A DNA stretch of 64,000 nt from Acidobacteriota bacterium (GCA_029263315.1 JAJCXR010000024.1:124526-188525), one strand, 5' to 3'. Shown: positions 5,915 through 46,205, numbered from the stretch's first letter. The notes: a model not told the origin generated them from the sequence alone. Numbers and translations are program-made.

Positions 5915-5934
5915 CATCTGGATCTGTGATCTAC

Positions 5935-8493: not shown

Positions 8494-8540
8494 GGCATTC
8501 ATGGCACTTGGCTTCTTTCGATTGACCTCCTCTCCGCCCT

Positions 8541-9509: not shown

Positions 9510-9539
9510 GGCCGGTGCGCCTCCAGCCATCTCTCCACC

Positions 9540-11249
9540 TTGACCGCGACGGTCACATGGCTTGCAGCTCCGCTTCCGGAGGGCGTCGAGGCGTTGTGTC
9601 GCCTCGGCTGCTCGACGCATCAAGCGGCCTTGCTGGCCCGGCGGGGCGTTGATCGGGCCGAAGCGCTGCGGGCCTTCCTGGAACCCAGCGTCGAGGACCT
9701 GCACTCTCCTGCCCTGTTGCACGGCATGAAGGAGGCGGTGGATCGCTTGCTGTTGGCCCGCGACGCTGCCCAACGGGTGGCTTTGGTCGGCGACTACGAT
9801 GTCGACGGAGTCAGCGGCACGGCCCTGCTGAGCGCTGTCCTGAAAGCCTGTGGTTTCGAGGTGCGCATGATCTTGCCCCATCGCATGCGCGACGGTTATG
9901 GCTTTCAGCCGGTCCACGTCGAGCGGGCGCAGCAAGAGGGTTGTGCCCTGGTCATCACCATCGACTGTGGCACCACCTCCCATGCCGCCATCGCCGCCGC
10001 CCGGGACGCCGGGCTCGATGTGGTGATCACCGATCATCATCTGCCGGACGGAGAGATGGCCGGCGACATCATCCAGATCAATCCCCAGCAGGACGCCTGT
10101 AGCTATCCCTTCGCCCACCTGTCCGGTGCTGGCTTGGCCTTCAAGCTGGCCCTGGCGGTGGCTGAAGTGTGCGACAAGGAGATCGATGTCCATGCCCTGC
10201 TGCGCATCGCTTGCCTGGGCACCATCGCCGATATGGTGCCGCTGCAGGGGGAGAATCGGGTCATCGCCAAGCTCGGTCTCGAAGCCCTGGCGACGACCCG
10301 CTCGCCGGGTCTCAAAGCCCTGATGCAAGTGGCCCGGGTCCGTCCACCCTTGGCGGCTGACGATATCGGCTTCCGTCTCGGGCCGCGGCTCAATGCCCCC
10401 GGGCGCCTGGCTTCGGCTGAGAAGTCCCTCGAGCTCTTGCTCTGCCGCCATCCCGGACGGGCCCTGCGCCTGGCCACCGACCTCGACCAAACCAATCGCC
10501 AACGGCAAGAAGAGGAGCGGCGGGTGGCTAAGGAGGCGGAAGCCCTGTTTGTCGATCGCCAACCGATGCCGGCCATCCTCGTGGGCTGGAGCCATACTTG
10601 GCATCGCGGGGTGGTGGGCATCGCCGCCGGGCGCTTGGCCCGACGCTTCAACCGCCCCACCGTGCTCTTGGCCGTCGACGGCGAAGCGGCCACCGGCTCG
10701 GGGCGTTCCATCTCCGCCATCCACTTGCATCGGTTCTTGCAGGATTTTGGGTCCCGCTTCGAGCGTTTTGGCGGTCATGCCCAGGCCATCGGCCTGACCG
10801 TGCCCAGCGACGCCTTGGAAGAGCTGCGGCAGGAGTTGGAGCAAGCCGCCGAGCCGTGGCGACCCATGGTTGAAGCTCGGAGCTACAAATATGAAATCGA
10901 ATTGGCGCCCGAGGAGCTGGACGAATCGTTGATCTCACAGCTCTGGTGCCTGGCACCCCATGGCCAGGGCAATGCCCAACCCTTGCTGAAAATCCGCGGT
11001 CCACTGCGACTTGCAGCGCCAGCCCGGCGGTTCGGCAACGATCACCTTTCAGGCCAAGCGGTCGGTCCCGATGGCGGTAAGATACGTTTCGTAGCTTGGG
11101 GATTCGCCCCTCGCTCGACGGAATTCGATGGGGAGTTCGAATTGCTGGGATTTATCGAACGGGATCGCTATCTCGGGGGCAGCGTGCTGCGCCTCCTGGA
11201 TTGCCGCGCCTATGAGAGCTCCCGTGGTTCGACGGCGGGGGAGGCCTGA
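9540..11249 (+). CDS. recJ: Single-stranded-DNA-specific exonuclease RecJ
   Basis: DHH motifs (VALVGDYDVDGVSG, ITDHH) and a DHHA1 domain. TTG start. Confidence 0.9.
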   Translation: MTATVTWLAAPLPEGVEALCRLGCSTHQAALLARRGVDRAEALRAFLEPSVEDLHSPALLHGMKEAVDRLLLARDAAQRVALVGDYDVDGVSGTALLSAVLKACGFEVRMILPHRMRDGYGFQPVHVERAQQEGCALVITIDCGTTSHAAIAAARDAGLDVVITDHHLPDGEMAGDIIQINPQQDACSYPFAHLSGAGLAFKLALAVAEVCDKEIDVHALLRIACLGTIADMVPLQGENRVIAKLGLEALATTRSPGLKALMQVARVRPPLAADDIGFRLGPRLNAPGRLASAEKSLELLLCRHPGRALRLATDLDQTNRQRQEEERRVAKEAEALFVDRQPMPAILVGWSHTWHRGVVGIAAGRLARRFNRPTVLLAVDGEAATGSGRSISAIHLHRFLQDFGSRFERFGGHAQAIGLTVPSDALEELRQELEQAAEPWRPMVEARSYKYEIELAPEELDESLISQLWCLAPHGQGNAQPLLKIRGPLRLAAPARRFGNDHLSGQAVGPDGGKIRFVAWGFAPRSTEFDGEFELLGFIERDRYLGGSVLRLLDCRAYESSRGSTAGEA

Positions 11250-11250
11250 G

Positions 11251-13260
11251 ATGGCCCAACTCGTGCGGGCCAAGAGCCCGGTGCGTTGGTTGCGCCGCAT
11301 CCTGTTGCTGGTTGGATTTGTCTCCCTGGCGGCGCTGGTGGTCATGTTGGCGGCCTATCAATTCGGCCGCATGGATCTTCCGGAGGCCCTCGACAGCGAA
11401 CGCCAACGTCCCGAGCTGGCCAGCGATCAGCGCACCTTGACCTCCGGCCAGGGCTTTGATTATGTGCAGTGGAGCCAAGGGCGCAAAGTGTTCAGGATTC
11501 GTGCCGAGCGCAGTCAGCAGGACCGCGACGAGACGGCCCGTCTGGAGAGCGTGACACTGGATATTTTCCGCAGCGCCGAGGGCGAGGTTTACACCATCAC
11601 CAGTCGCCAAGCGCGGGTCAACCAGAGCACTTGGGCCGCCGAGCTGGAGGGCGACGTGGTGATCCGTGGCTGGGACAATCTGGTGCTCGAGGCACGGGCC
11701 ATCGAGTTGCTGGAGGGAGGGCAGCTGTTACAGAGCCGTGGCGCGGTGGAGTTTCGCTACCCACCGGAGATCGTCGGTCGGGCTTCCCAACTGCGTCTCG
11801 ATCGCAAGGAAGATTTGATCACCCTGAGCGGTGGTGTCCATGTCAAGACGGTGCCGGAGGCAGCGGTAGCCATGCGCCTGGACTGCGAGCGCTTGGTCTA
11901 TCGACAGGAAGAGGGCTTGGTGCGGGCCATGGACGATGTCCTGCTGCGACGGGGCCAGCAGGAAATCCGCGGCCGCGTGTTGACCATGTTCATGACTCCG
12001 GAAAAGGAGCTACAGAGTTTGCGGGCCCGTTTCGATGTCAAGGGCTTGATGCATACCCTGAGCGATCTCGGCCTGCCCGGGGAAGTGGGCTTCAGCGGCC
12101 AGTTGCTCGACATCACACCCCAGGAAGGGCACCGGGATGCGTACACCATTCGCCTCGAAGGGGGGCCGGAAGGCGGGCCTTCGATCATCCGCATGGTGGA
12201 CGCCAGCGGCCTCGCACGCCGGATGACCGGACGGGTGTTGGAGAGCCAAACGTCACCGTCTGGCCTCGACTTGGTGGAGGGCACCGGCGACCCGCTGGTG
12301 ATCGACGAATACCTAGACTTTCCGCAGCCCTTCCAGCTGCGCCAGGCCTGTGCCCGCAAGGTGACGGCCCGCTTTCTCGACAACGGCGATCTCGGTTACA
12401 TGGAGCTCGAGCAATCCGTCGAGTTGCGGGATCAGCGGGTGCATCTGAGCGGTGGTGAGCGGGCGTCCCTCGATCTGGTCCAAGGCCAAGTGGAGATCGA
12501 GGGGCGAGGGGTCGAGCTCTACAATGACCGCGGTGACGTGGCGGCGCCCCATATTTCGTATTCCCAAGACAACGGCTACATCCATGCCAAGGGTGGCGTA
12601 CGGGCTCGCCTGGTTCCCGGCACGGCCTTGCGCGACACGCCGTTCTCCAACGGTGAAGGCCCCTTGCACGTCGAGTCCGCCGAGGCGTTCTGGGCCGGAG
12701 AGCCGCCGGCCTTTGCTTTCCGTGGCGCCGTGCGGGCCTGGCGGGAGCAGAACCTGTTGCTCACCGAACAGTTGCGCGGTGACCAGGAGGGACGGCAGAT
12801 GTCGGCCGCCGGGGGGGTCAAAACAAAGTGGATTCCGACTTCGCGCTCCGCCTTCGAGGGGGCCGGCCAACCGGTGGAGGTGGACGCCCAGCAGCTGAGC
12901 TACCGTCAGGACGAGCGCCAGCTTCTCTACAGTGGTGAGGTGACGGTGCACCAGGAGGAGCGCACCATCCGTTGCGACGAGCTGTCGGTCGATCTCAGTG
13001 CCGACGGCAGCGACGCCGAACGCATGACCTGTGAAGGCAATGTAGTTCTCGTCGATCCACCGGCGAATCGTCGGGTGCTCGGCGACCGGGCGGTCTATAC
13101 TGTACAGAAGCAGCAGGTGGAGATCTTCGGCAACAACGTGCGCCTCATCGATGCCGACAACAACAACCTCGAAGGTCGCTACCTGAGCTATGACCTGAAC
13201 GCCGGGACCGTCCACCTGCAGAGTCGGGTCCCCATGACCACTGCCTCTGAGGTACCATGA
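11251..13260 (+). CDS. LptC-like membrane anchor fused to LptA/OstA-like periplasmic repeats
   Basis: 670 aa. It has an N-terminal TM helix and OstA-type beta-jellyroll sequence motifs across the protein, e.g. [20 protein letters not shown] and [37 protein letters not shown]. It sits directly upstream of lptB-rpoN, where lptC-lptA lie in the E. coli gene order. Confidence 0.7.
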
Positions 13261-28468: not shown

Positions 28469-29227
28469 ATGATCATCGCAATCACCAATCAAAAAGGTGG
28501 GGTCGGTAAGACCACCACGGCCATCAACTTGTCGGCGGCTATGGCATCGAAGGGTTCTCGGACTCTATTGATCGATGTTGATCCGCAAGGCAATAGCTCC
28601 ATGTCGTACGTCGACCCCCATGCAGTCAAGCAGTCCATGTACGATGCCTTGACCGAGGACTCAGTTCATCTCTCCGACATCATTCAAGAGTCGGAGAAGG
28701 TGCCGAACCTCTCGGTTGCCCCAGCAACCATTTCGTTGGCTAAGCTGGAATCGGCCCTGTTGGGCGAGTTGGATAGCCATTTCCGCCTCAAGGACGAGCT
28801 CGACAAGATCGCGGACGACTTCGACTACATCATCATCGATACACCTCCAACGCTGGGCATCATCACCGTCAATGCGTTGGTGGCGGCCACACATGTATTG
28901 ATCCCGATCCAGTCCAGTTATTTTGCCCTTGAAGGGACGGATGATCTCCTGGAGACCATCGACAAAATCAAGGTTCGGGCCAATCCAAACTTGCAGATCC
29001 TCGGTGCCGTCATCACGCTGTACGACAAGAGGACGATTCTGGCTCGAGATATTCGGGAACAGATCGACCAAGTATTTGGCGACAAGCTCTTCGAGACCAC
29101 CATCAGCAAGAGCGTGCGGCTAGAAGAAAGTCCGGCCTACAAGGAATCGATCTTTTCGTTTGCCCCTCAATCCAGCGGTGCGTACGAGTACTACAAGTTG
29201 TCGGAGGAGGTTCTGAGTCGTGTCTAG
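28469..29227 (+). CDS. parA: ParA/Soj-family partition ATPase
   Basis: Deviant Walker A KGGVGKTTTAINL. Lower GC than surroundings. Confidence 0.9.
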   Translation: MIIAITNQKGGVGKTTTAINLSAAMASKGSRTLLIDVDPQGNSSMSYVDPHAVKQSMYDALTEDSVHLSDIIQESEKVPNLSVAPATISLAKLESALLGELDSHFRLKDELDKIADDFDYIIIDTPPTLGIITVNALVAATHVLIPIQSSYFALEGTDDLLETIDKIKVRANPNLQILGAVITLYDKRTILARDIREQIDQVFGDKLFETTISKSVRLEESPAYKESIFSFAPQSSGAYEYYKLSEEVLSRV

Positions 29228-30125
29228 AAGCGCCACTGCCAGCAAGAAACGCGGCTTGCCCGAAAGGGTCCGCATGCGTGCGACGAGCCATTTTGTCGAT
29301 GAGCTCACGAGCCGCAACGAAGAAGAAGCCATTGGGCGAATGATTCCTATTTCTTCTATTGAGCCGGATCCTTCCCAGCCCAGAACATCGATGGGTGACC
29401 TGTCCGAGCTCGCCAAGTCCATCCGCGACAAGGGGGTCCTGGAGCCCATTCTGGTGCGTCCCTTGGAGAGGGCGCTGCCGTCGGGGGCCCAATTTCTCAT
29501 CATCAGCGGTGAGCGGCGTTACCGGGCTTCCATGGAAGCCGGCCTATCGGAAGTGCCCGCCATCGAGATGCCGGTCTCCGTCGAAGAAGCCCTCGAGATT
29601 GCTCTCATCGAGAATCTCCAACGCAAGGACCTGACGCCCTTCGAAGAGGCGGAAGGTTATAAGGCGCTGGCGGAGCGCTTTGACTACACCCATGAGCAGA
29701 TTTCTGAGGCGGTGGGGAAGTCCCGTACCGTCGTTACGGAGAGCTTTGCCCTCCTGCAGATGTCACGCCGGGTACGTGAGGCGGCGGACGCCTTGGGCAT
29801 TCATACCAAGTCCTTGCTGCTGGAAGTGCTGAAGTGCGATACCGAGGATGAGATGATTTCATTGCTCGAGGAAGTCAACCTACATGGGTTGAGCCGTGAC
29901 GATCTACGTCGCCAGAAACGCGGCGCTAAGACGTCGGGCGGTGCCACCAAGAGACGTCCCTTTGTTTTCAATTTCAAGGCCCCCGACAAGAGCTACAGCC
30001 TGGCGTTGAAGTTTCGGCAGACGGATGTCAGCAAAGGCGAGTTGATCACGGCATTGGAGCGGATTCTCTTGGATCTCAAGGCCGAGAATCTAGACGCAGC
30101 CGCGGCCGAGAAGCCGACCCACTAG
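29220..30125 (+). CDS. parB: ParB/Spo0J-family partition protein
   Basis: ParB N-terminal domain (ILVRPL, GERRYRA), HTH and C-terminal dimerisation region. The GTG start overlaps the parA stop. Confidence 0.85.
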   Translation: MSRSATASKKRGLPERVRMRATSHFVDELTSRNEEEAIGRMIPISSIEPDPSQPRTSMGDLSELAKSIRDKGVLEPILVRPLERALPSGAQFLIISGERRYRASMEAGLSEVPAIEMPVSVEEALEIALIENLQRKDLTPFEEAEGYKALAERFDYTHEQISEAVGKSRTVVTESFALLQMSRRVREAADALGIHTKSLLLEVLKCDTEDEMISLLEEVNLHGLSRDDLRRQKRGAKTSGGATKRRPFVFNFKAPDKSYSLALKFRQTDVSKGELITALERILLDLKAENLDAAAAEKPTH

Positions 30126-33990: not shown

Positions 33991-34485
33991 TTATTGTCTT
34001 CCGTGGTCCTTGGCAATCGCTCCGCCGAGTCTGCGGTAAGACGCCTCCATACCGTCTTCCATTCCCGAAGCCAGCATGGCTTCACGGGTCTTCTCGTCGG
34101 GGAGTGTCATCCGCATGGTCATCAAGGTGCCGCCGTTTTTGGCCTCGAAGCGGGTTTCGATGTGGTTTTCCGGCGTCGGCCCTGGGAGATGCATGCGCTC
34201 AATATGAACGATCCGCGAGAACGGCTCGAGCTCGATGAATTCACCGGTTATATAGAACCCGCCACCCTTTCCATCCGACCATTCGTAACGAAATTTTCCG
34301 CCGGGAACAGCGTCATTGATGCACACCGGCATGGTCCATTTTTCCGGCCCAAGCATCCACTGCTGAATGAGATCCGGGTCCGTATGTGCACGGAAGACGG
34401 CCTCGGGTGAGGCGGCAAACTGACGGGTGATGACGATGTGCCGGTCACCCTCGATGGTCAGTTTGAGCTGCGTAGAGATGGTCAT
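33991..34485 (-). CDS. SRPBCC-superfamily protein (AHSA1/Aha1-like)
   Basis: 164-aa protein with an Aha1-like signature. Confidence 0.7.
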   Translation of the reverse strand: MTISTQLKLTIEGDRHIVITRQFAASPEAVFRAHTDPDLIQQWMLGPEKWTMPVCINDAVPGGKFRYEWSDGKGGGFYITGEFIELEPFSRIVHIERMHLPGPTPENHIETRFEAKNGGTLMTMRMTLPDEKTREAMLASGMEDGMEASYRRLGGAIAKDHGRQ

Positions 34486-34832
34486 GGTGGTGGTTCCTTA
34501 TGTGGTTCGCTTGGACCGACAGCCAAGAGCTCATCGAGCCGGTCATAGTTGGAAGACATGGCGTTCCGCAGCTCATTCAGCCATTGATCGATCGGAGCGA
34601 GCCCGTCCGCAGCAAGGGCACAGGGGCGGCGCGACCCGTCGACGCGGCGGTGGATCAACCCGGCATTTTCGAGCACCTTGAGATGCTTGGAAATAGCTGG
34701 CTGGCTCATTTCGAACGGTTCTGCGAGCTCCATCACTCCGAGCTCACCCGAGGCCAAGCGCGCTAGAAGGGCGCGTCGTGTCGGATCAGCGAGAGCAGTG
34801 AGAACAACGGTGAGCTGTTCTGCGGTTTTCAT
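34482..34832 (-). CDS. ArsR/SmtB-family metalloregulatory repressor
   Basis: LADPTRRALLARL...MSQPAISKHLKVLENAGLI winged HTH, with Cys in the C-terminal region. Confidence 0.85.
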   Translation of the reverse strand: MKTAEQLTVVLTALADPTRRALLARLASGELGVMELAEPFEMSQPAISKHLKVLENAGLIHRRVDGSRRPCALAADGLAPIDQWLNELRNAMSSNYDRLDELLAVGPSEPHKEPPP

Positions 34833-34840
34833 GCTCTCAA

Positions 34841-34860
34841 TATAACCGAGAGGTTATATT
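34841..34860. promoter_or_regulatory. Candidate ArsR operator: 8-bp inverted repeat with 4-bp spacer (ATATAACC-GAGA-GGTTATAT)
   Basis: Perfect dyad 9 bp upstream of the arsR-like start in an AT-rich spacer. Confidence 0.5.
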
Positions 34861-35140
34861 CTGTCAAAGTTATACATTAGGGCGACAAGACTCCCCTCCC
34901 CCAACCGTTTGGGAAGCGGACTGTGGATCGGTACTCAGCGAGGGCCGCCTTCCCCTCAAGATCGATTCGGCTTGAATTTGAGGAGCTCAAGTGTTCGTAC
35001 TTAGTTTCTTCTACGGCAAGCTCGGCCGAGCCGACTGGCGAGATGTTGATTGACTAGGGAAGACGGCAGGCTGCTTGATTCTGATCCTGGCCTCGATCAT
35101 TCACGCTTCCTCCCTTTCTGCACAAATCTGCTGAGTATGC

Positions 35141-35563
35141 TCAGAGGGCACCTCTTTCCGCAACCCTGAGCGCGTCGAGGATAGGGCACTCGCTGGTCGG
35201 TCCGGCGCCCCCCTGACACGTCTCTGTCAGACGGCCCAAAGCGTCTTCGATGCGGCGTAGCGACGCGATCTTTTCCCTTACGTCGCGGAGCCTATCTTCC
35301 GCTCGTTCCTTGACCTCGCTACAGGTCGCTGCCGGATCGACGCGCAGCGACAGCAGCTCACCGATCTCGTCAAGGGAGAAGCCAAGCTGCTGGGCCCTAT
35401 GGATGAATCGGATCCGTGGGATCGTGCTCGCCGGAAAAGCGCGATAGCCAGAAGCGCGACGTGGCGCCTGCGGGATCAAACCACGGCGCTCGTAGTAGCG
35501 GATGGCCTCCACCCGCATCTCGGTAGCCGCGGCTACCTCGCCTATCGACAAAGCCGTAGTCAT
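35141..35563 (-). CDS. merR: MerR-family Hg(II)-type metalloregulator
   Basis: MerR HTH (IGEVAAATEMRVEAIRYYERRGL). Three Cys at about positions 80, 118 and 127 (ATCSE...ETCQGG...SECP) match the MerR Hg-binding Cys spacing. Confidence 0.75.
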   Translation of the reverse strand: MTTALSIGEVAAATEMRVEAIRYYERRGLIPQAPRRASGYRAFPASTIPRIRFIHRAQQLGFSLDEIGELLSLRVDPAATCSEVKERAEDRLRDVREKIASLRRIEDALGRLTETCQGGAGPTSECPILDALRVAERGAL

Positions 35564-36576
35564 TCATTGCTCCCTTGAGTGTTCGCCCGATGGCCTTGGC
35601 CAGGCGCGAACTTCTGAATGCGATGGTTTCCGAAGTCCACCACGTAGACGTTACCATCGTTATCCACCGCGACATCGGTCGGCCGGTCAAGCTTGCCAAG
35701 TGCCGAACCCTCGGCGCCGATGATCGCCAGGTGCTCGCCCTCGGTCGTCAGTTTCCGGACTTGGTGGCTGTAGAAGTCAGCGACGAAGATGGCGCCGTCT
35801 GGACCTACGGCGACCGCCGTCGCGGTGCGGAACTTGCCTCGATCGCCATCGGTACCTGAGGAGGTCGAGCCATTCCACAAGCGTAGGAAGCTCCCCCCCT
35901 TGTGGAAAATCTGGACGCGATCATTGTAGGCGTCGGCAACAACCAAGCTCCCATCGCTGAGCAGGGCCACATCGGTGGGGTACTGAAACCGTCCCGGCTC
36001 GGATCCCGTTCGGCCGGTTTCTCCCAGCTGGCGGATCAACTCTCCTGCCGAGGTCATGACCTGGATCCGCTGGTTGTAGAAGTCCGCCACGTAGAGCTTC
36101 CCTTCGGCGTCGACATCGACCCCTGCCGGCGCGTCGAACTGGCCGGGTCCGGATCCAGGCATGCCCAGGATCTCTTGAGAGATCCCCGCCGGCGAGAAGA
36201 CCTGGATGCGGTCGTTTAGGTATTCCGCGACGTACAACCTGCCATCGCGGAATGCGAGATGCATCGGCCGCGCAAGTTCCCCTGCTGCGCTTCCTTCTTT
36301 GCCGAAGGCACGAACGAATCGGCCTGCGAGGTCGAATACCTGAATGCGGTGATTGCCCGCGTCGCTGACGTAGACCTCACCCTGCGCCACGGCGATCCCG
36401 ATCGGTTGGCGCAGGTCTCCAGGTCGAAACCCCTCCTGGCCCCAGGTCGAGACAAATCGGTAGCCGCCGTTCGGCAGCGGCAGCTCCCCCGCTCCTACCT
36501 CGCTGACGCCGGTGCTCGACACGCTAGCTGCGAGGCTGAGAGCGAACAGGTAGGTGGTACAGCGGCGCCACATCAC
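35560..36576 (-). CDS. Secreted NHL-repeat beta-propeller protein
   Basis: Signal peptide followed by six NHL-like repeats (YV.D..N.RIQVF). Confidence 0.8.
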   Translation of the reverse strand: MMWRRCTTYLFALSLAASVSSTGVSEVGAGELPLPNGGYRFVSTWGQEGFRPGDLRQPIGIAVAQGEVYVSDAGNHRIQVFDLAGRFVRAFGKEGSAAGELARPMHLAFRDGRLYVAEYLNDRIQVFSPAGISQEILGMPGSGPGQFDAPAGVDVDAEGKLYVADFYNQRIQVMTSAGELIRQLGETGRTGSEPGRFQYPTDVALLSDGSLVVADAYNDRVQIFHKGGSFLRLWNGSTSSGTDGDRGKFRTATAVAVGPDGAIFVADFYSHQVRKLTTEGEHLAIIGAEGSALGKLDRPTDVAVDNDGNVYVVDFGNHRIQKFAPGQGHRANTQGSNE

Positions 36577-37502
36577 CAGTTCACCCGCATGCTCAAGATG
36601 GCGGTGCCATCGGGTTCTAGGGCAGCGCCATGGAGCGCTCTTACAATTGGAATCTGCACTCCGGCTTCGACGATCAACCTCTTGCTGACGAGCTGAATGC
36701 CCGGTGCCAAGTAGGCGATGAAGCCGCCCGAGTCTGGATCAGCCAGGCCGCCGGCACGATTTCGGCCGGCCCACACCAGATTGCTCTCCAGGACGCCGTA
36801 GAGGAACCGGGGCAGCCCGGCCTTCAGGCGACGCGGCAGGAGCCGGTGTTGGTACGAGATGTCGAGCCGCGCCTCGTCGCCAAGCTCGAAAGCGTTGGCT
36901 TGGTCGTTGACTCGGTAGGCAATGGAGGTATCGAGCTGCCAGCCCAGAGTTTGCCAGGTGGCGACCGAACCGAAGGCGAGATCCCAGGAACCCGAGCCGA
37001 GCTGAAGCGGCGGTGGAAGCCCGCCCAGGCCATCGCGCCGGTCGTCCTCGCCGGTGGGCGCCTCGACGCCGAGGAACGGTGCCAGGCGAAAGGTTCGTCC
37101 CGGCCGGTCGCGACGAAACAGCGTATAGCGGCCCAACAAGGTGACGTCGCCCAGGCCAGAGACCTGTCGTCGCTTGCGACCGTTCGACGTCGTGAGAGCA
37201 AGCTGCTTGTCGAGGATCGGAAGAATGGCAAAGAGGGCCAGCTTGTCGGTGACACCGTAGACCCCAACCAGGGACAGAGCTTCGACCTCCAACTTTCGCT
37301 GCGCTGAAGTCGGGTCACCGGTCGACCGGAGGTACCTCGTCTGGATACGAACGATCCCTTCTCCTTCGGCGACCGGCAGGGCCGTGTTGAAGGTAATCGG
37401 TGCAGCAGCAACGTGCACGACCGCAAGACTTACACCGAAGCCCCAGACAGCGAAGACCGCCATTGGCAGAATTGCATTTCTCTGGCCAATTCGTTGCCTC
37501 AC
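36573..37502 (-). CDS. Outer-membrane beta-barrel of the 'transporter'/MetA-like family
   Basis: 309 aa with a signal peptide, alternating beta-strand pattern and a C-terminal aromatic residue (…RVNW). Confidence 0.55.
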   Translation of the reverse strand: MRQRIGQRNAILPMAVFAVWGFGVSLAVVHVAAAPITFNTALPVAEGEGIVRIQTRYLRSTGDPTSAQRKLEVEALSLVGVYGVTDKLALFAILPILDKQLALTTSNGRKRRQVSGLGDVTLLGRYTLFRRDRPGRTFRLAPFLGVEAPTGEDDRRDGLGGLPPPLQLGSGSWDLAFGSVATWQTLGWQLDTSIAYRVNDQANAFELGDEARLDISYQHRLLPRRLKAGLPRFLYGVLESNLVWAGRNRAGGLADPDSGGFIAYLAPGIQLVSKRLIVEAGVQIPIVRALHGAALEPDGTAILSMRVNW

Positions 37503-38053
37503 CTTCGCACCTCTTCAATGTGCTCGGGAGACAGCGCCGGACCAGCGTCTGACCATCGAATCTCTCCACGCAGGGTCACCGGTATGTCGCCTCGAAGAAA
37601 CTCGAGCAGACGCAGGGCGATCTCATCAGCAACATCGACCAACAACAGGCTTCCTTCGTCGTTCTCGAAGCGTAGCTGAAGGTCGCCTTCCTTTGGCCCG
37701 GCAACGACTCGGCCAGTGACCTCGATGTCCAAACTACCGGGGGTGAAGCCGGCCTTCTCGACAGCTCGTCGGACCTCTTGGACATCGATGGACTGGCCCT
37801 GTTCAGCGATGACTCGCGCTTGACCTGCCACGAGGTCGATTGTCACCTTCTCGACCGCGTCTACCTTCAAGAGGCGCTTTTCGATACCGTATCCGCAGAA
37901 CGGGCAGGCCATGCCGTCGACTGCAACCGTGGCCTTGATGACCTGGGCAGGGAGCGGACTGGCGAGCAACAGAATTAGTAGCAACGGTTTCCAAACAAGC
38001 CGCATGGCATCGCTCTCCTTCTGCGATTGGGAGCTTGGGCCCTTCAGCTTCAC
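37499..38053 (-). CDS. Secreted heavy-metal-associated (HMA) domain protein with C-terminal extension
   Basis: Signal peptide, then GMACPFCGYGIEKRL (MxCxxC metal-binding motif). 4-bp ATGA overlaps with both neighbours. Confidence 0.75.
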   Translation of the reverse strand: MKLKGPSSQSQKESDAMRLVWKPLLLILLLASPLPAQVIKATVAVDGMACPFCGYGIEKRLLKVDAVEKVTIDLVAGQARVIAEQGQSIDVQEVRRAVEKAGFTPGSLDIEVTGRVVAGPKEGDLQLRFENDEGSLLLVDVADEIALRLLEFLRGDIPVTLRGEIRWSDAGPALSPEHIEEVRR

Positions 38054-38322
38054 GCCTCCCCCTCCACGGATTGGCCGAGACCGACCTCGCGCAGCCGAGC
38101 GAGGTCCACACCGCCGCGGCAGCAGTCGGCGAGAACGCCGTCTATAACTACCGAGGGGGCTCTCGCTACGCCCTGAGCTCGAGCACGTTCCGCTACAGAG
38201 GCATCCCGAAGATCGGACACACTCACGTCACAGGAGGTGCACGCTAATTCACCTACCGCAGTGACGACCTCGTCGCACAATGGGCAACCTGCGCTGAAAA
38301 TCTCTATCGTTAGCTGACTCAT
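38050..38322 (-). CDS. Small thioredoxin-fold redox-active disulfide protein (CPxC), ars-operon type
   Basis: MSQLTIEIFSAGCPLCDEVV, about 90 aa, with AAAGGAG 8 nt upstream of the ATG. Confidence 0.65.
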   Translation of the reverse strand: MSQLTIEIFSAGCPLCDEVVTAVGELACTSCDVSVSDLRDASVAERARAQGVARAPSVVIDGVLADCCRGGVDLARLREVGLGQSVEGEA

Positions 38323-38411
38323 GGGTCGACTCCTTTCTTCCAAGTTGCAACAGAGGCACATCTTGGCATTCTTGTCGGAGAAGAAATGTGTACTGAGGCG
38401 GAACACGATCG

Positions 38412-38872
38412 TTACGCCAGCCAGGAGAGCCGCGGCGCGATGCCTCTCCCGGCATGCAGGAAGAACTTACAGCCTGAAGTCAACTTCAGAGTCAAGGGGT
38501 CCCCCAGAGAATGTTGTGTAGAGGGTCGCAAGCAGATTTGTATTGATTTGGGAGTACCAGGCTCAACCTCCCGATCAAGCCATAGCTGCGCCCGATCGAG
38601 CCTTAGTTGGCCTCCGACAGTCCTCCGACTCGTATCCGCAAAACAGCGGCGCAATGCTCGGCTCACGTAGACTAGGCTGATCAACACCGGTACATCGACC
38701 AGGGGTCCGACCGCTTTCGCAAAGGCGATCGGCGAGGCGATTCCAAAGATGCCGATGGCTATAGCGATCGCCAGCTTGAAGTTATTGCCAGAAGCGGCTC
38801 AACCCGCCGCTCAGCCCAAGGCGATGCCGGTCAGACTCCAAATCAGGAGCTTGCTGCGCAGCGACCCCGCGA
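38412..38872 (-). pseudogene. Remnant of an ACR3-family arsenite efflux pump; only the C-terminal 50-60 codons survive, interrupted by two in-frame TGA codons
   Basis: Minus-strand frame reads ...[55 protein letters not shown]..., matching the conserved ACR3 C-terminus (NF.LAIAVAI..FG..S..A.A.V.GPL.EVPV.L.LV). No upstream ACR3 body exists. Confidence 0.4.
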
Positions 38873-38995
38873 GATCTGACATGGGGTTTTCACAAGTCTT
38901 AGACCTCGATCTCATGACTCCAACAGAGAATCCTCACCGCTCCTATGGACCAGGAAGGGCCAGAATTCACGGTATTCGGAGCCTCGCACGACGAG

Positions 38996-40375
38996 TCACC
39001 GGGCTGCACGAGCTGCGCCCTTCACCATTTCGCTCAGCGTCGGATGGGCGTGAATCGACTTGCTGATTCGGTCGATTCTGCCGTTTCCGTGCATCGCAGC
39101 AACAGCCTCGTGCAGGAGATCATCACCGTGAGGTGCGAGAATGTGGAAGCCGAGGATTTGCCGGGATTCTCGATCTACAACCGCTTTGAGCAGTCCGCGT
39201 GGATCACCGATCGTTTTGGCTCGCGCGCCGTCCGCACGGACCGTGCCAACCGCCACGTCATGACCGCTCTCTCGAGCCTCGGCCTCGGTGAGACCGACTG
39301 CCGCCAGCGTCGGGTCGCTAAAGATCGCCCTCGGCACGACCCGGTAGTCGACTTCTTTCCCCAGGCCTTTGACGGCGTTCAAGGCAGCGAGGGGTCCGTC
39401 ATAGGTCGCCACGTGGGTGAACATCCAACCGCCCTTGACATCGCCGATGGCCCAGACATGCGGCTGGCTCGTCCGAAGCTGGCCGTCGACCGGAATAAAG
39501 CCCCTCGCGTCTATGTCGATACCGGCGGACCGTAGGTGGAGGCCGCCGGTGTTCCCGACCCGCCCGGCCGCAACCAGGACTTCTGCGGCACGGTACTCCT
39601 TCTCTGAGCCGTCAGTGCTACAGACGGCTATCTTCTGTCCGTTCTCGTCGCGTATCGACTGCACGGCGGCCCCGGTTCTGACGTTGATGCCCTCCTCTCG
39701 GAGGTAGTCCGCAAGGAGCTCGGAGAGCTGAGGATCCTCTCCGGGCGCCAAGCGGTCATTGCGGCCGAGGAGAGTGACCCTCGAGCCGAAGCGGGAATAC
39801 ATCTGAGCAAACTCGATTCCAACGTAGCCGCCTCCGATCACCAGGAGGCTCGACGGCACACGCCCTAAATGCAGAGCTGTATCGTTGTTCAAAGAGTCAA
39901 TAGCTTCCAGGCCCGAGATCGGAGGCACGACCCGGCGTGCCCCTGTGGCGATGATCGCCTTGGTGAAGCTGATTCGGCGATCGCCAGTGTCGATTTCGTG
40001 GGGACTGACGAATCTGGCCTCTCCTCGGACGAAATCGATCGCATCCCGTCGTTTGCTCAACGCGCCATGGATCGTCTTATGAATGCCGCTAACAATGGCG
40101 TCCTTGCGCGCCACGGCCTGATCCAGCCGAAAGCGCACGGCGCCATCGATCTCAACTCCGAGGTCGGTCGCCCGCCGGGCAACCAGGTGCATCACTTCGG
40201 CCGAGCGCAGCAAGGCCTTGGTAGGGACGCACCCCTCGTTGACTCAGGTGCCGCCGACCTCCGCGCGCTCGACGAGCGCAACCCGGGCTCCGAGGTTGGC
40301 CGCCATATGGGCGGCCGGCAGACCTCCCTGTCCAGCTCCGATCACCGCCAAGTCATAGTCATGTGATGGCATCAT
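38996..40375 (-). CDS. LpdA/GR/MerA-like flavoprotein disulfide reductase with an in-frame TGA replacing the first redox-active Cys
   Basis: From ATG 40375, preceded by GAGGGAG: MMPSHDYDLAVIGAGQGGLPAAHMAANLGARVALVERAEVGGT-TGA-VNEGCVPTKALLRSAEVMHL..., then about 415 aa of intact frame through the NAD(P) GxGxxG and the C-terminal HAHPTLSE dimerisation motif. The TGA is codon 44 at 40244-40246, where the canonical [13 protein letters not shown] has Cys. This is either a selenocysteine codon or a nonsense mutation. Confidence 0.6.
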
Positions 40376-40397
40376 GGTTCTCCCTCTACTTTGGTTT

Positions 40398-40427
40398 GTG
40401 TCAAGTTGTGTCAAGTTGTGTCAAGTC
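40398..40427. repeat. Three tandem copies of GTGTCAAGTY in the 5' region of the TGA-containing reductase gene
   Basis: gtgtcaagtt gtgtcaagtt gtgtcaagtc, 20-50 bp upstream of the ATG at 40375. Confidence 0.8.
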
Positions 40428-40461
40428 TCGCTCGAGAGCCGAGGTCCTGGGTGACGCCCGG

Positions 40462-40563
40462 CTATTCTTTCGAATCGCCGTGACGGTCACCTTCCAGCAC
40501 AGTGCCGGCCGAAAGGGCAGCAACAACCAGCAGGATCGAAGCATGAGTGAGCTTGGGATTCAT
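40462..40563 (-). CDS. Possible 33-aa secreted peptide between merA and the TGA-reductase gene
   Basis: MNPKLTHASILLVVAALSAGTVLEGDRHGDSKE, with a strong SD (AAGGAGAAGGGTCC-ATG). It is below the ORF-track length cut-off. Confidence 0.35.
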   Translation of the reverse strand: MNPKLTHASILLVVAALSAGTVLEGDRHGDSKE

Positions 40564-40617
40564 GGACCCTTCTCCTTCGGAGTGATGAGCGTGCCGACGA
40601 CGCTTCGTCGGCTAGGG

Positions 40618-42380
<1,763 letters not shown>

Positions 42381-42409
42381 CATCTCGTGTTCTCCTTGTC
42401 TCAGGTGGC

Positions 42410-42751
42410 CTACAACAGCCACGATGCGTAGTACGGAAACGCCATCAAGGCGACCGCGACGGTCGCTACGATCCACAGCACAATGCGGTGCCGCCGCCGG
42501 CTCTTGGGGACCGCGCAGGCTTCCCCCGGCTCGCACTCCACCGGCCTGTAGGCCTGATAGAAGGCGAAGCCTAGGAAGATGAGGGTCAGCCCTGCGAACC
42601 AGGGGCGAAGGGGCTCGAGCTTCGCTCCCAGGGCCGCCGACCCGACCCCGAGGACCGCCACAGCGACTGGCAGGATGCAGCACAGCGAAGCACCAAAAGC
42701 AGCGATCACGGCTCCGGCGTTGACAAACACGTTCTTCTTGGTTTCTTCCAT
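42410..42751 (-). CDS. merT: Mercuric ion transport protein MerT
   Basis: Three TM helices. TM1 has the Cys-Cys pair (GASLCCILPV). The cytoplasmic loop has the second Cys pair ECEPGEACAVP. The C-terminus VLWIVATVAVALMAFPYY is MerT-like. Confidence 0.75.
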   Translation of the reverse strand: MEETKKNVFVNAGAVIAAFGASLCCILPVAVAVLGVGSAALGAKLEPLRPWFAGLTLIFLGFAFYQAYRPVECEPGEACAVPKSRRRHRIVLWIVATVAVALMAFPYYASWLL

Positions 42752-42769
42752 CGGGTGCTCCCGTTCAAT

Positions 42770-43090
42770 TCAGCTCTGCTTGAGCAAGGTAGCGAGGACT
42801 TTGGTGACCTTCTTGAGCCGCTCGTCCGGGTCGCCTTCCATGCAGGTATTCATGCAGGAGTGCAGCTCGTGCTCCAGCAGCACAGCGGAGAAGCGATTGA
42901 GTGCCGCCTTGACCGCGGATACCTGCAGCAGGATTTCGTCGGCGCACCGCTCCTCCTCGAGCATCTGGCCGACGCTCCGAAGGTGCCCTTCGAGCCGTGC
43001 AAGCCTGTTGCGCAAAGCGCGTTTCGCAGCCTCGTCTAGGTATCCGAGACCGGCTGGATGGGAGGTCGAAAGATCGTTCTTCGAAATCAT
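42770..43090 (-). CDS. CsoR/RcnR/FrmR-family (DUF156) metal-sensing transcriptional repressor
   Basis: 106 aa with ARLEGHLRSVGQMLEEERCADEILLQVSAVKAALN and the C-H-C ligand pattern (C..H..C). AAGGAGAA SD. Sits 18 bp upstream of merT. Confidence 0.8.
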   Translation of the reverse strand: MISKNDLSTSHPAGLGYLDEAAKRALRNRLARLEGHLRSVGQMLEEERCADEILLQVSAVKAALNRFSAVLLEHELHSCMNTCMEGDPDERLKKVTKVLATLLKQS

Positions 43091-43118
43091 GAAAAGGTTC
43101 TCCTTCTTTGGACTGGTT

Positions 43119-43137
43119 TATCCCCCCCGGGGGGATA
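43119..43137. promoter_or_regulatory. Candidate CsoR-type operator: G/C-tract palindrome TATCCCCCCC-GGGGGGATA
   Basis: Near-perfect dyad 29 bp upstream of the csoR-like start codon. CsoR-family operators are typically C-tract/G-tract inverted repeats. Confidence 0.45.
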
Positions 43138-43379
43138 CCTCAATCTAACACTACGCAGCAGCCTCGAGCTCGGTTCATTCCTACTTGCCGAGTGGGGAAA
43201 ACTGCGTCTTGGTGCTGATCGATCGATCGAGCTTGGAGGGAACCGACTGAGGGGGGGCCAGGGCAACCGGTGTCACCTCGTCTACCTGAGTCAGGGATCT
43301 TGACGAGACCGGAGTTTCCGGGTTGCTGTTCTTCTCAATCTCGAGACGGGGAATCGCCCACGAGCCGTCCGGGCGCCGA

Positions 43380-44774
43380 CTAGCGCTCCGCCGTCAACAG
43401 CAACGGCGCCAGCTCCGCCAAGTCCTCAACGACGACGGTGGCCAACCCCTCGGGAACGACCCGCAGGTCCCCGGGTGGTAGGAAGACCTGGCGGAACCCC
43501 AAGGCGGCGATTTCCCGCAGCCGGGCCTCGGTCTGCGACACCGGTCGGACCTCCCCCAGCAGGCCGACTTCGCCGAAGAAGACGGCCTCGTGGGGCAGGG
43601 GTCGCTCCCGCTCGGCGCTGAGCATGGCGGCGGCGATGGCCAGATCGGCGGCGGGTTCTTTGAGCTGGAGGCCACCGACCACGTTGAGGAAAAGGTCCCG
43701 GTCGCCGAGTCCCAGACCGCCGAAACGCTCGAGCACGGCGGCCAGCAGGATGCTGCGATGGCGGTCGACGCCGACGCTCATGCGGCGGGGGGATGGGAAG
43801 CTGGTGGGATGAATGAGCGCTTGCACTTCCACCAGCAGGGGGCGGGTGCCGTGCAGGCTGGCACACACCGCCGAGCCGGGACGATGTCCGCGGCGCCGGG
43901 CCAGCAGCACCCGGGACGGATCTTTGACCGCCACCAGGCCGTTGTCATGCATCTCGAACATGGCCACCTCGCCGGTGGGCCCGAAGCGGTTCTTCTGGGC
44001 CCGCAGAACCCGGTACTCGGAATGGCTCTCACCCTCGAAGGTGAGGACCGTATCGACCAGATGCTCCAAAGATTTTGGCCCGGCGATGGCGCCGTCTTTG
44101 GTCACGTGGCCGACCAGGAAGAGAGCCATGTCATAGCCCTTGGCCAGCTCGACCAGGCGATCGGCACAGGCCCGCACTTGACCGATCGAACCAGGCGGGC
44201 CACTGAGCTCTTGGCTGCGCAGGGCTTGCACCGAGTCGACCAGCACCATGTGGGGACGACGTTCGCTGATCACCTGTAGCAGCGGTTCGAGTCGGGTTTC
44301 TCCAGCAACGTGCAGCGTCTCGGCTTCACACCCCAGGCGGCTGGCCCGCAGGTGCAGCTGCCTGGGGCTCTCCTCGGCGCTGAGATAGAGCACTGAGGCG
44401 CCGCTGCTGGCCAGGTCGTTGCCCATTTGCAGCAGTAGGGTGGACTTGCCGATGCCCGGCTCGCCGGACAGCAAGACGGCACCGCCGGGCACGATGCCGC
44501 CACCCAGAACGCGGTCGATCCATGGTGAGCCGGTCGACAGTCGGCTCCCTTCGTCGGCCACGATGTCCCGTAAGGGCTGGACGATGGTGGCCGGGCCTTG
44601 GCCCTTGAGGCGGGAGGAGGAGGCCGTAGGCGCCAAACCGCCGCCGCGGCTACCCCGCTCCTCCACTTCCTCGCTGAACGAGTCCCAGGCGCCGCAGTCC
44701 GGGCAGCGACCCAGCCACTTTGGGCTGCGGTAGCTACAGCTCTGGCAGATGTGGATCGATCGCGGTGCGGCCAT
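43380..44774 (-). CDS. radA: DNA repair protein RadA/Sms
   Basis: N-terminal zinc finger CQSCSYRSPKWLGRCPDCGAW, RecA-like Walker A GEPGIGKST, and a Lon-like C-terminal domain. Confidence 0.9.
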   Translation of the reverse strand: MAAPRSIHICQSCSYRSPKWLGRCPDCGAWDSFSEEVEERGSRGGGLAPTASSSRLKGQGPATIVQPLRDIVADEGSRLSTGSPWIDRVLGGGIVPGGAVLLSGEPGIGKSTLLLQMGNDLASSGASVLYLSAEESPRQLHLRASRLGCEAETLHVAGETRLEPLLQVISERRPHMVLVDSVQALRSQELSGPPGSIGQVRACADRLVELAKGYDMALFLVGHVTKDGAIAGPKSLEHLVDTVLTFEGESHSEYRVLRAQKNRFGPTGEVAMFEMHDNGLVAVKDPSRVLLARRRGHRPGSAVCASLHGTRPLLVEVQALIHPTSFPSPRRMSVGVDRHRSILLAAVLERFGGLGLGDRDLFLNVVGGLQLKEPAADLAIAAAMLSAERERPLPHEAVFFGEVGLLGEVRPVSQTEARLREIAALGFRQVFLPPGDLRVVPEGLATVVVEDLAELAPLLLTAER

Positions 44775-44798
44775 GGACGGGTTCTCAGGTCTCGAAGG

Positions 44799-46205
44799 TT
44801 AGAAGCCGGCTTGCTCGGTGTGCACTTTTTCCATATTGCGGAAGGTCGTATTCTCGCCCATGAAGACCAGATCGACGGTGCCGGTTTCGCCGTTACGATG
44901 CTTGGAAATGATGAGCTCCGCCAATCCTTTGTTGTCGGGGTCATCCTTGTTGTAGAGCTCGTCGCGGTAGATGAAGCACACCATATCGGCGTCCTGCTCG
45001 ATGGAGCCACTCTCACGCAGATCCGCCAGTTGGGGACGATGGTCGTTGGCCCGACGCTCGGTTTGGCGCGACAGCTGCGACAGGGCGACCACCGGAATCA
45101 TCAGCTCCTTGGCCAGCTGTTTGAGACCACGGCTGATGGCGGCGATTTCCAGTTGCCGGTTTTCGTAGCGCCCCCCCGCCTGCATGAGCTGGAGGTAATC
45201 CACCAACAAGAGGTCGAGACCCTTTTCGGCCTTCAGACGCCGCGACTTGGAGGCGATCTCCAAAAGCGACGGATTGGGTGAGTCATCGATGAAGATCTGC
45301 GCCTCGTTGGTGCGCCGGGTGGTTTCGTAGATGCGCCCCCACTGCCCTTCGGACATCTTGCCGGAGCGCAGGTTGCCGAAGGGAATGTCGGCCTCCGAGG
45401 CGAGAATACGTTGCACCAGCTCCTGCTCGCCCATTTCGAGGGAGAACAGGGCCACCGACTTCTCTTCCCGGATGGCGACGTTCTGGGCGACATTGAGGGC
45501 AAAACTGGTTTTACCCATGCCCGGACGACCGGCGATGATGATCAAGGCCCCGGCGCCCAGGCCTTGGGTCATGCGGTCCCAATCATAGAAACCGGTGGGG
45601 ATGCCCACCAAGCCGCCGCCGGCCCGTTGCTCGAGGCTGGCGATGGTGGCTTCGTAGACCTCCGCCAGGGCAGAAAATCCCTTCTGCACCGCCTCTTCCG
45701 ACAGGCCGAAGATGCTCTTCTCCGCTTCCGCCAGGGCCTCCGTGGCATCGAGGCCCCCCTCGAGGCAGCCGAAGACCAGCTCTTGGCATTTCTGCACCAG
45801 ACGGCGACGGACGGAACGTTCCTTGACGATCTCGACATAGGTATCGACCCGCCCGATGTCCGGCAAGTCGAGATCCAGGCCGGCCAGGAAAGCCATGCCA
45901 CCGATGAGCTCGAAGGAACCCTTGAGCTGCATGTGCGCCTGCAGGGTCCGCAGGTCGATCTCCGATTCCCGTTCCTGAAGCTCGAGCATCGCCCGGAAGA
46001 TCAGCTGATGCTTTTCGAGAAAGAAGTCCTCGTCCGTCATCCGCCCGGTGATGGTTGGCAGAATCCGTGGCGACAAGAGAATCGACGCCAAGACGGCGCG
46101 CTCCGCCTCCTCGCTATTGGGCAAGGTCTTGCCGGCGGCCGACTCGAAAGTGGGTGTCGGCGCCTTGCGGCGGGAGCGTTCGAAATTCATCGTCTTAGGA
46201 GGCAT
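44799..46205 (-). CDS. dnaB: Replicative DNA helicase DnaB
   Basis: DnaB N-terminal domain, Walker A GRPGMGKTSF and the RecA-like fold. The start is ambiguous (46205 or 46190) because it lies inside a tandem repeat. Confidence 0.9.
   Translation of the reverse strand: MPPKTMNFERSRRKAPTPTFESAAGKTLPNSEEAERAVLASILLSPRILPTITGRMTDEDFFLEKHQLIFRAMLELQERESEIDLRTLQAHMQLKGSFELIGGMAFLAGLDLDLPDIGRVDTYVEIVKERSVRRRLVQKCQELVFGCLEGGLDATEALAEAEKSIFGLSEEAVQKGFSALAEVYEATIASLEQRAGGGLVGIPTGFYDWDRMTQGLGAGALIIIAGRPGMGKTSFALNVAQNVAIREEKSVALFSLEMGEQELVQRILASEADIPFGNLRSGKMSEGQWGRIYETTRRTNEAQIFIDDSPNPSLLEIASKSRRLKAEKGLDLLLVDYLQLMQAGGRYENRQLEIAAISRGLKQLAKELMIPVVALSQLSRQTERRANDHRPQLADLRESGSIEQDADMVCFIYRDELYNKDDPDNKGLAELIISKHRNGETGTVDLVFMGENTTFRNMEKVHTEQAGF

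Follow-up and report, generated by a model that had tools for sequence, protein, structure and literature searches.

A mosaic mercury resistance island in an acidobacterial chromosome, with a CsoR-type regulator at the head of merTPA and a probable selenoprotein reductase

In mer operons of the Tn21/Tn501 type, merR is transcribed divergently from merTP(C)A(B)DE, and it adjoins and controls merT-merP-merA. The mercuric reductase MerA is marked by a redox-active CxxxxC motif, a C-terminal vicinal Cys pair, and a Tyr in place of the His of disulfide reductases, which is established knowledge (see also PMC7527725). RclA, the Cu(II) reductase of Escherichia coli, is homologous to MerA and has only one redox pair; both Cu(II) and Hg(II) stimulate its oxidation of NADH (PMC7527725). 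Here we describe a locus of an Acidobacteriota bacterium in which these elements are arranged differently. The window analyzed is GCA_029263315.1 JAJCXR010000024.1:124526-188525, 64,000 nt in length, and the island in question occupies positions 35141-43137 on the minus strand. Its merT, merP, and merA genes are headed by a CsoR-family regulator instead of merR, and merR is apparently the last gene of another operon, 7 kb downstream of merTPA. An earlier sequence-only reading had recognized a mercury resistance island here, and we uphold that interpretation. We read the segment as a chromosomal mosaic island of a Thermoanaerobaculia-related acidobacterium, composed of three modules that would each have their own control elements, and we put the probability of this reading at about 0.65.

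All features listed in the sequence-only reading are present on the minus strand at the positions that it gave, but their proposed grouping needed revision. It had counted eleven co-directional genes in a single transcription unit led by a CsoR-like protein. The direction is common to all, whereas the twelve items comprise ten genes, one pseudogene fragment, and one 33-amino-acid open reading frame (ORF). A single operon, with the CsoR-like protein acting as repressor at its head and the 3' MerR merely as an extra regulator, would fit this shared direction and the 4-bp overlaps at five junctions. Only two of these, merP/merA and NHL/merR, are the ATGA overlaps that had been described; the trx/HMA, HMA/barrel, and barrel/NHL junctions are GTGA. 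The remaining junctions are gaps of 18, 26, 242, and ∼670 bp. A GC-rich hairpin, GCCGACGA-AGCG-TCGTCGGC, can be read from the sequence at 40593-40612 (minus strand), 5 nt past the merA stop codon and without a U-tract. A terminator scan called no terminator-like site on the minus strand, this hairpin included, so that transcripts from the first promoter could read through all of the genes, which is a point in favor of one operon and against our reading.

Three observations argue for separate units. First, a conserved promoter of the MerR type at 38464-38495 precedes the last five genes. Second, two long gaps interrupt the series, one of 242 bp between merA and a reductase gene, which contains the hairpin, and one of ∼670 bp between that reductase and the third module, which contains the fragment of an ACR3 gene. 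Third, the modules are separate, reordered, or reoriented in G038, L034, L128, and L129 (L- and G-numbers denote the related loci and genomes used for comparison, at which neighboring genes were labeled from tblastn matches at 30 to 85% identity). Locus L034 holds nearly every part in another arrangement, with identities of 82% for the CsoR-like protein, 78% for MerT, 76% for MerA, 74% for the reductase, 80% for MerR, 61% for the barrel, and 52% for the NHL protein, and in a quick maximum-likelihood (ML) tree the window MerA and the window reductase are each sister to their L034 counterparts. The modules therefore seem to travel together, yet not as one operon. We consider one continuous operon quite improbable and read the transcript boundaries, from sequence features, as those of three modules.

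The ACR3 fragment (38628-38798, minus strand) is the 3' remnant of an arsenite efflux gene, as had been proposed. In a BLASTP comparison it is 60% identical over 52 amino acids to residues 308-359 of the ACR3 protein of L035; it had no Pfam match at an E value of ≤0.1. The 33-amino-acid ORF (40462-40563, minus strand) had been counted as a gene, and it is probably not one, as it had no tblastn counterpart in any related locus compared.

Module 1 opens with a promoter/operator at 43115-43143 (minus strand), in which a -35 hexamer TTGAGG and a -10 hexamer TAAACC flank a 17-bp spacer filled by a palindrome (TTGAGG-TATCCCCCCGGGGGGGA-TAAACC). The palindrome, TATCCCCCCGGGGGGGATA, lies at exactly 43119-43137, where it had been placed before. 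The same operator, ATCCCCCC(N0-3)GGGGGGAT, is found 5' of the orthologous regulator gene in L034, L093, L094, L097, and L134-L140, and at most of these loci, where the regulator comes first, it visibly lies between the -35 and -10 hexamers. A search of the 8-Mb assembly with the pattern ATCCCCC-N0-5-GGGGGAT returned one further site, and the window site is the only one outside an ORF. The second site lies inside an ORF of 450 amino acids with no mer genes nearby and was treated as a chance match.

The first gene of module 1 encodes a CsoR/RcnR-family protein of 106 amino acids (42770-43090, minus strand; PF02583, 71.4 bits versus a cutoff of 22.8). Its best solved relative is InrS (5FMN), and its scores against the NCBIfam models for RicR, FrmR, and RcnR fall far under the cutoffs. 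The canonical x-C-H-C fingerprint is missing: in alignments with InrS and Geobacillus CsoR, the canonical Cys corresponds to A50 and the canonical His to E75. Instead, an alignment of 16 orthologs shows three invariant Cys residues, C49, C79, and C83, within the signature RCADEIL ... C-x3-C-M, while the canonical His position is occupied by H, Q, E, or S. C49 stands one residue ahead of the canonical first Cys, C79 matches the last of the canonical ligands, and C83 adds a further invariant Cys.

The genomic neighborhood of this subfamily is as distinctive as its Cys pattern. Nine of ten acidobacterial orthologs (48 to 70% identity) adjoin merT, merP, merA, or a zf-CopZ gene, and the tenth lies at a contig end. 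Four more distant orthologs (36 to 38%) are also beside merT, merT or merA is directly downstream in six of seven metagenome loci, and the 82% identical ortholog in L034 heads merT-merP-X-merA-SecRed, where SecRed is the reductase considered below. The proposal that a CsoR-family regulator with a G/C-tract palindrome heads merTPA is thus borne out by more than 20 loci in which the subfamily stands beside merT, merP, or merA, many of them with the same operator. More distant relatives from the same phylum, with the canonical C-H-C ligands and TACCC..GGGTA operators, have no mer neighbors (L107 and L110). A literature search of limited coverage found no description of a CsoR-type mer regulator.

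Two related loci carry variants of this arrangement. In the CsoR-like ortholog of L098 (G049:C138:31245-33269, at ∼1498-1767; 58% identity), an in-frame TGA stands two codons ahead of C-x3-C (...DSEI-TGA-SCVNTCME). This gene may encode a sensor with selenocysteine (Sec) or may be a pseudogene; a contig end is nearby. In L136 (Ga0114931_10118899, 242-2225), a csoR-like gene, merA, and a PF13557-like barrel gene stand in a row, without merT.

The next three genes are conventional. merT (42410-42751, minus strand) encodes an inner membrane Hg(II) transporter of 113 amino acids with a CC pair in LCCILP (PF02411, 94 bits). The merP-like gene (42027-42383, minus strand) encodes a periplasmic HMA protein of 118 amino acids with a signal peptide and the motif GMTCGGC (PF00403, 66 bits), and its stop codon overlaps the start of merA (ATGA). 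merA (40618-42030, minus strand) encodes a core MerA of 470 amino acids without an NmerA domain. This protein scores above the cutoffs of both models (TIGR02053, 554.1 versus 454.45 bits; NF010311, 755 versus 600), and it has the redox CxxxxC, the Tyr in place of the disulfide reductase His, and a C terminus reading ...LSCCAG. The gene is ∼71% identical at the nucleotide level to merA of an E. coli plasmid. In the mechanism that we propose for module 1, a CsoR-family tetramer bound to the palindrome would block RNA polymerase and would leave once a thiophilic metal, most likely Hg(II), fills a three-Cys site formed by C49 of one chain and C79 and C83 of another. MerP and MerT would then import Hg(II), for reduction by MerA. 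Three thiolates make a suitable site for Hg(II), which is the effector that we infer from the sequence.

Module 3, at the other end of the island, would be an autoregulated operon. Its promoter (38464-38495, minus strand) combines TTGACT and TAAGTT with a 20-bp spacer, within the 19 to 20 bp of MerR-type promoters, and the spacer contains the dyad CTGAAGT-TG-ACTTCAG at 38474-38489. It lies 142 nt ahead of the start codon of the thioredoxin-like gene and is unique in the host genome. A near-identical promoter precedes merC-trx-HMA-barrel-NHL-merR in G038. L034 has two copies of the promoter, one ahead of the HMA gene and one ahead of barrel-NHL; merR lies between the two, on the opposite strand.

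The last gene of the module, which overlaps the NHL gene by ATGA, encodes a MerR-family metal sensor of 140 amino acids with Pfam MerR domains (35141-35563, minus strand). The sequence-only reading had called it an Hg-type MerR with three Cys residues, and we concur: C81, C116, and C126 (spacing of 35 and 10) align with the Hg ligands (C82, C117, and C126 in Tn501) in 5CRL and 4UA1, the loop being one residue longer. These two Hg-MerRs are also the best solved relatives of the protein, whose identity to MerRs annotated as Hg(II) responsive is 48 to 54%. Among plasmid MerRs the closest, with 54% identity and the same annotation, is encoded beside a heavy metal P-type ATPase in L141 (CP114558.1, a Candidatus Manganitrophus plasmid, 5818-9876). 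The L141 merR gene is divergent from a 201-amino-acid call labeled "FAD-dependent oxidoreductase," which may be another split reductase gene.

The four genes ahead of merR encode one thioredoxin-fold protein and three envelope proteins. The thioredoxin-fold protein (Thioredoxin_3; 38050-38322, minus strand; PF13192, 25.4 bits) contains CPxC, CxSC, and CC motifs, and the alignment of its orthologs shows six conserved Cys residues, including the vicinal CC. Its real start is probably the ATG at 38322, which gives 90 amino acids as in the orthologs. A secreted HMA protein follows (37499-38053, minus strand; PF00403, 43 bits), with the CxxC motif GMACPFC and an extra C-terminal domain of ∼80 amino acids; its start is likely the ATG at 38005, and HMA proteins of 163 to 170 amino acids form Atlas clusters. 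The third gene (36573-37502, minus strand) encodes an outer membrane beta-barrel of 309 amino acids without Cys, and the fourth (35560-36576, minus strand) a secreted six-bladed NHL beta-propeller of 338 amino acids with five NHL repeats, whose only Cys is in the signal peptide, leaving the mature form without Cys. Profile searches confirmed both of these earlier assignments (PF13557, Phenol_MetA_deg, 47 bits; PF01436, 166 bits). Orthologs of the NHL protein are 57% identical in G038 and 52% in L034.

Homologs of the barrel occur in 16 of 401 Acidobacteriota genomes, and the barrel gene adjoins an HMA gene in 13 of 14 loci, an NHL gene in 9, and merR in 7. Genes of the mer type stand next to this module in G038, L129, L034, and L136; other loci lack them within the flanks covered. 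PF13557 barrels are otherwise reported beside genes for aromatic catabolism, and the same limited literature search found nothing linking PF13557 to mercury. The suggestion that the barrel and propeller may provide an envelope route for mercury species is reasonable in view of the co-occurrence with HMA, MerR, and sometimes mer genes. We propose that MerR, with Hg(II) on C81, C116, and C126, would remodel the long-spacer promoter and so turn on an envelope metal-handling set (secreted metallochaperone, outer membrane channel, and periplasmic propeller) together with a Cys-rich cytoplasmic thioredoxin-fold protein.

Both regulators and the envelope module might instead be tuned to a different soft metal (Cu, Ag, Cd, Pb, or Zn) and be no more than neighbors of the mer genes. 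The window MerR scores nearly equally on the models for MerR (TIGR02051, 129 bits), ZntR (125), and CueR (123), and the first value is under its cutoff of 150.85. Many soft metals are ligands of HMA CxxC domains, mer genes are missing from the flanks covered at several barrel/HMA/NHL loci, the closest plasmid MerR stands beside P-type ATPases, and labels assigned at 30 to 40% identity (MerP and MerR) at related loci may cover proteins for other metals. These points count against a mercury-specific island. They are opposed by the three Hg ligands and the Hg-MerR structures closest to the protein, by the position of the module beside merC in G038 and merTPAB in L129 and in the csoR-like-merA-barrel row of L136, and by the CsoR-like subfamily being almost always beside merT. 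We regard a different metal as unlikely and retain mercury as the probable effector of both regulators.

Module 2 consists of a single gene for a class I flavoprotein disulfide reductase of 459 amino acids (38996-40375, minus strand), which had been listed as a "TGA-reductase" and which we call SecRed, for selenocysteine reductase. The first Cys codon of its CxxxxC motif is replaced by an in-frame TGA at 40244-40246 (U44; GGT-U-VNEGC-VPTK), and the protein keeps the His-Glu dyad HAHPTLSE (HxHPTLSE) and lacks a C-terminal Cys pair. Such a codon could be a nonsense mutation or a sequencing error that leaves the second reductase gene dead. Gene callers do split the gene, and database entries are only 396 to 415 amino acids long: in a search of 5.8 billion proteins, the top 120 relatives (66 to 78% identity) were all called at that length, from an internal start past the TGA. 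The missing 42-amino-acid N-terminal piece was called as a separate tiny upstream gene in seven contigs and lies within a longer upstream call in an eighth. However, the TGA is aligned with the catalytic Cys, and all ∼38 orthologs at ≥49% identity, found at loci from public genomes of several phyla, retain it; the 73% identical ortholog in G038 has it too. Otherwise the frame is intact. The 35 full-length orthologs have 457 to 461 amino acids and a mean pairwise identity of 66%, and their only invariant Cys is C49, the partner of Sec44. Among 18 paralogs at ≤40% identity, 11 matched the motif test, and all 11 have TGY.

The RNA downstream of the codon is conserved as well. A hairpin resembling a selenocysteine insertion sequence (SECIS) occupies 40185-40234 (minus strand), starting ∼10 nt past the UGA. 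It has a conserved 8-bp stem with compensatory G-C to A-U changes, and an apical hairpin persists even among the SecRed members that diverge most. Its fold z-scores are modest, and Rfam gave no match; a scan of 34 to 44 kb at an E value of ≤1 returned chance-level matches only and no SECIS family. Synonymous divergence of the gene is lowest at codons 41-66 (0.37 to 0.39 versus 0.55 elsewhere; Mann-Whitney P ∼ 1e-4). The host genome has selA adjoining a tRNA-Sec gene, plus selB and selD, and selA and tRNA-Sec are present in five other carrier genomes. Because the TGA is conserved, the hairpin is kept under suppressed synonymous change, and the Sec machinery is present, a dead gene is so unlikely that we set it aside. 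SecRed is therefore treated here as a probable selenoprotein, made by recoding of UGA through the hairpin directly downstream and with Sec as its charge transfer residue (U-x4-C).

The host selD gene (G000:C21:7123-8046; 360 bits to TIGR00476) itself holds one in-frame TGA, and its product, selenophosphate synthetase, probably contains Sec in this organism. At 40396-40425 (minus strand), 20 nt ahead of the reductase start, CTTGACACAA occurs as three identical tandem copies, each of which contains TTGACA. They were considered as a reductase promoter and rejected for want of a convincing -10 element at 16 to 18 bp.

SecRed would represent a widespread and apparently undescribed selenoprotein family. 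There is no specific model among its best matches in NCBIfam release 20, and a class I flavoprotein disulfide reductase is absent from the lists in two reviews of the prokaryotic selenoproteome (2022 and 2026). The FAD selenoenzymes in both reviews are of the coenzyme A disulfide reductase type and sulfide-quinone reductase only, and their "putative mercuric reductase" is a small UxxU HMA protein (PMC13188914; 10.1101/2022.07.06.499078). Our limited literature search likewise found no description of a Sec-containing mercuric reductase. Carriers include Gemmatimonadota, Chloroflexota (Anaerolineae, Caldilineaceae, and Ardenticatenaceae), a metagenome-assembled genome of Myxococcales, Thermoanaerobaculia, and Neomarinimicrobiota, with identities of 50 to 73%, and SecRed was found in only 2 of 401 sampled Acidobacteriota genomes. 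A spread this patchy is typical of transferred resistance genes.

The neighborhood of SecRed is largely that of mer operons. At least one of merR, merT, merP, and merB stands beside it in 26 of 38 loci, and in ∼18 it directly follows merT, merP, or merB. Common layouts are merR-X106-merT-merP-SecRed(-merB), merT-merP-zfCopZ-arsR-(merC-merB)-SecRed, and a merR-SecRed pair. Promoters of the MerR type precede merR-merT-merP-SecRed operons in L035, L038, L044, and L048. The TTGACT-CCGTAC half-site in the annotated mer operator of an E. coli plasmid is also present in the L048 and L035 promoters, and L048 shares both half-sites. Only the window, L034, and L064 have a canonical merA together with SecRed. 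Five genomes with SecRed mer operons, one of them 99% complete, have no match above the MerA cutoff, and the best MerA-like match in each is SecRed.

Other genes recur in these operons. An ORF of ∼106 amino acids without a Pfam match is found between merR and merT or after merP (L035:1145-1465 and also L038, L039, L044, L048, and L049). A zf_CopZ gene (PF18423) followed by an ArsR-type helix-turn-helix gene or a CsoR-like gene is a recurrent insert after merP (L029 [G038], 12423-13255; L036, L037, L041, and L042; L096, L099, and L100), which suggests further swapping of regulators in mer systems.

What SecRed does in these operons is less clear-cut than where it is found. It might be an NADPH-dependent reductase of a variant mer system that works like MerA, replacing MerA in most carrier genomes and acting as a second reductase beside MerA in the window; from its sequence and context we would give this slightly less than an even chance. 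Its sequence lies outside the MerA family, because it has no C-terminal Cys pair, has the His-Glu dyad, scores under the cutoff, and forms its own clade. Specifically, SecRed reaches 412.6 bits on TIGR02053 (cutoff, 454.45) and 414.1 on lipoamide dehydrogenase; it ends in ...HAHPTLSEMVKGAARAAR, without a Cys pair and with His rather than Tyr; and the dyad is typical of disulfide reductases. The quick ML tree, computed without named outgroups, separates the Sec clade (support, 99) from the MerA clade (99) and places the former with a non-MerA group that has Cys (94). About 12 of the 38 loci have no mer neighbor. In the window itself, SecRed would be dispensable for Hg(II) reduction because a canonical MerA is present. 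Bonds between Hg and selenolates are very strong, so that Hg(II) could inhibit SecRed instead of serving as its substrate. All of these points weigh against a mercuric reductase.

Much of the same evidence would fit an enzyme that reduces disulfides or selenenylsulfides and maintains a thiol partner in its reduced state under mercury stress. The dyad is kept while the Tyr and Cys pair of MerA are missing, the nearest group in the tree is the Cys-containing non-MerA clade, and a third of the loci are without mer neighbors. The partner may be the Cys-rich thioredoxin-fold protein, a zf-CopZ protein, or a low-molecular-weight thiol, and a thioredoxin-like gene does co-occur with SecRed in the window, G038, L035, and L048. 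Genomic context points the other way. SecRed occupies the merA position, often right after merP or merB, and pairs of merR and the reductase gene are common. Moreover, no canonical MerA was found in five genomes that combine merT, merP, or merB with SecRed, and a disulfide reductase would leave the Hg(II) that is imported, or released by MerB, without a reductase. The RclA precedent of metal turnover by a single-pair MerA homolog makes Hg(II) turnover by SecRed conceivable. We regard the thiol-reducing role as the main rival, though the less likely one, and favor a mercury reductase role for SecRed as a working proposal. The stronger claim, that SecRed is a true Hg(II) reductase acting through its selenolate-thiolate pair with no need of a C-terminal Cys pair, and that the three-Cys CsoR-family protein senses Hg(II), is offered tentatively, with the odds somewhat against it.

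The island is embedded among core chromosomal genes; its neighbors on both sides have housekeeping or unrelated functions. Upstream lie radA and dnaB (43380-46205), and parA and parB (28469-30125) lie further downstream. Directly 3' of merR is a separate small unit, an arsR-AHSA1/SRPBCC gene pair (33991-34832, minus strand), which is preceded by a near-consensus sigma-70 promoter, TTGACA-17-TATATT, at 34839-34867 (minus strand). No integrase or transposase gene was seen adjoining the island, and remnants of merC, merB, and zf-CopZ genes were sought in the window and not found. The host genome (8.0 Mb in 67 contigs) belongs, by its kinship labels, to the same order as G038, and matching DNA is present in five sequencing runs from biofilm and marine metagenomes, whereas no RNA run was found to contain it.

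The modules differ in what they would add to the biology of mercury. Surveys based on merA would score whole lineages as lacking mercury reduction, as gene callers split SecRed and it fails the MerA models; if our proposal is correct, SecRed would do the work of MerA in many Gemmatimonadota, Chloroflexota, and Acidobacteriota that seem to lack merA. In mercury detoxification it would then also be the first selenoenzyme. Selenoenzymes are known to be poisoned by mercury, and one selected within mer operons would be a surprising case of Hg-Se chemistry serving defense. Whatever its substrate, SecRed would add a class I flavoprotein disulfide reductase to the prokaryotic selenoproteome. The three-Cys CsoR-family protein, if it does respond to Hg(II), would give the CsoR/RcnR family its first Hg(II) sensor; together with its fixed operator, it would bring a new metal specificity to the family and offer a compact candidate part for biosensors. 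The MerR-controlled barrel/HMA/NHL set is a candidate for an outer membrane step of mercury handling in diderm bacteria.

Each part of the island can be set against a described system. With mer operons of the Tn21/Tn501 type the window shares MerT, MerP, and a MerA above the TIGR02053 cutoff, as well as a MerR with three Hg ligand Cys residues and a long-spacer promoter that has TTGACT as its -35 element and a dyad at its center. The operator half-sites differ (CTGAAGT/ACTTCAG in the window versus CCGTAC/GTACGG), merD and merE are missing, and a predicted selenoprotein reductase and envelope genes are added. With CsoR, RicR, and InrS the module 1 regulator shares its fold family, an operator that overlaps the promoter and consists of a G/C-tract inverted repeat, and a position as the first gene of its probable target operon. 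It differs in the shifted Cys, the unconserved His, and the extra Cys (C-x3-C-M), in an operator of the ATCCCCCC..GGGGGGAT type where canonical CsoR relatives have TACCC..GGGTA, and in having mer genes as partners, whereas those of CsoR, RicR, and InrS are copper or nickel exporters. SecRed has the class I FAD/NAD(P)H disulfide reductase fold, the redox pair position, and the operon slot of MerA (TIGR02053; 1ZK7 and 5X1Y), and 5X1Y is its best solved match (295 bits). In contrast to MerA, it has Sec for the first Cys, neither a C-terminal Cys pair nor NmerA, and the His-Glu dyad where MerA has Tyr; it is 32% identical to the window MerA and falls in a separate clade. RclA (6KGY; 232 bits) resembles SecRed in having one redox pair without auxiliary pairs of Cys, but it has Cys rather than Sec, its induction by reactive chlorine goes through RclR, and it is absent from mer operons; SecRed scores 294 on the NCBIfam RclA model against a cutoff of 740. 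Finally, the known mercury-linked selenoproteins (a MerT-like protein, the UxxU HMA protein NF041115, HgcA, and HgcB) also have Sec in place of a metal ligand or redox Cys (PMC13188914; 10.1101/2022.07.06.499078), yet none of them is a pyridine nucleotide-disulfide oxidoreductase, as SecRed is.

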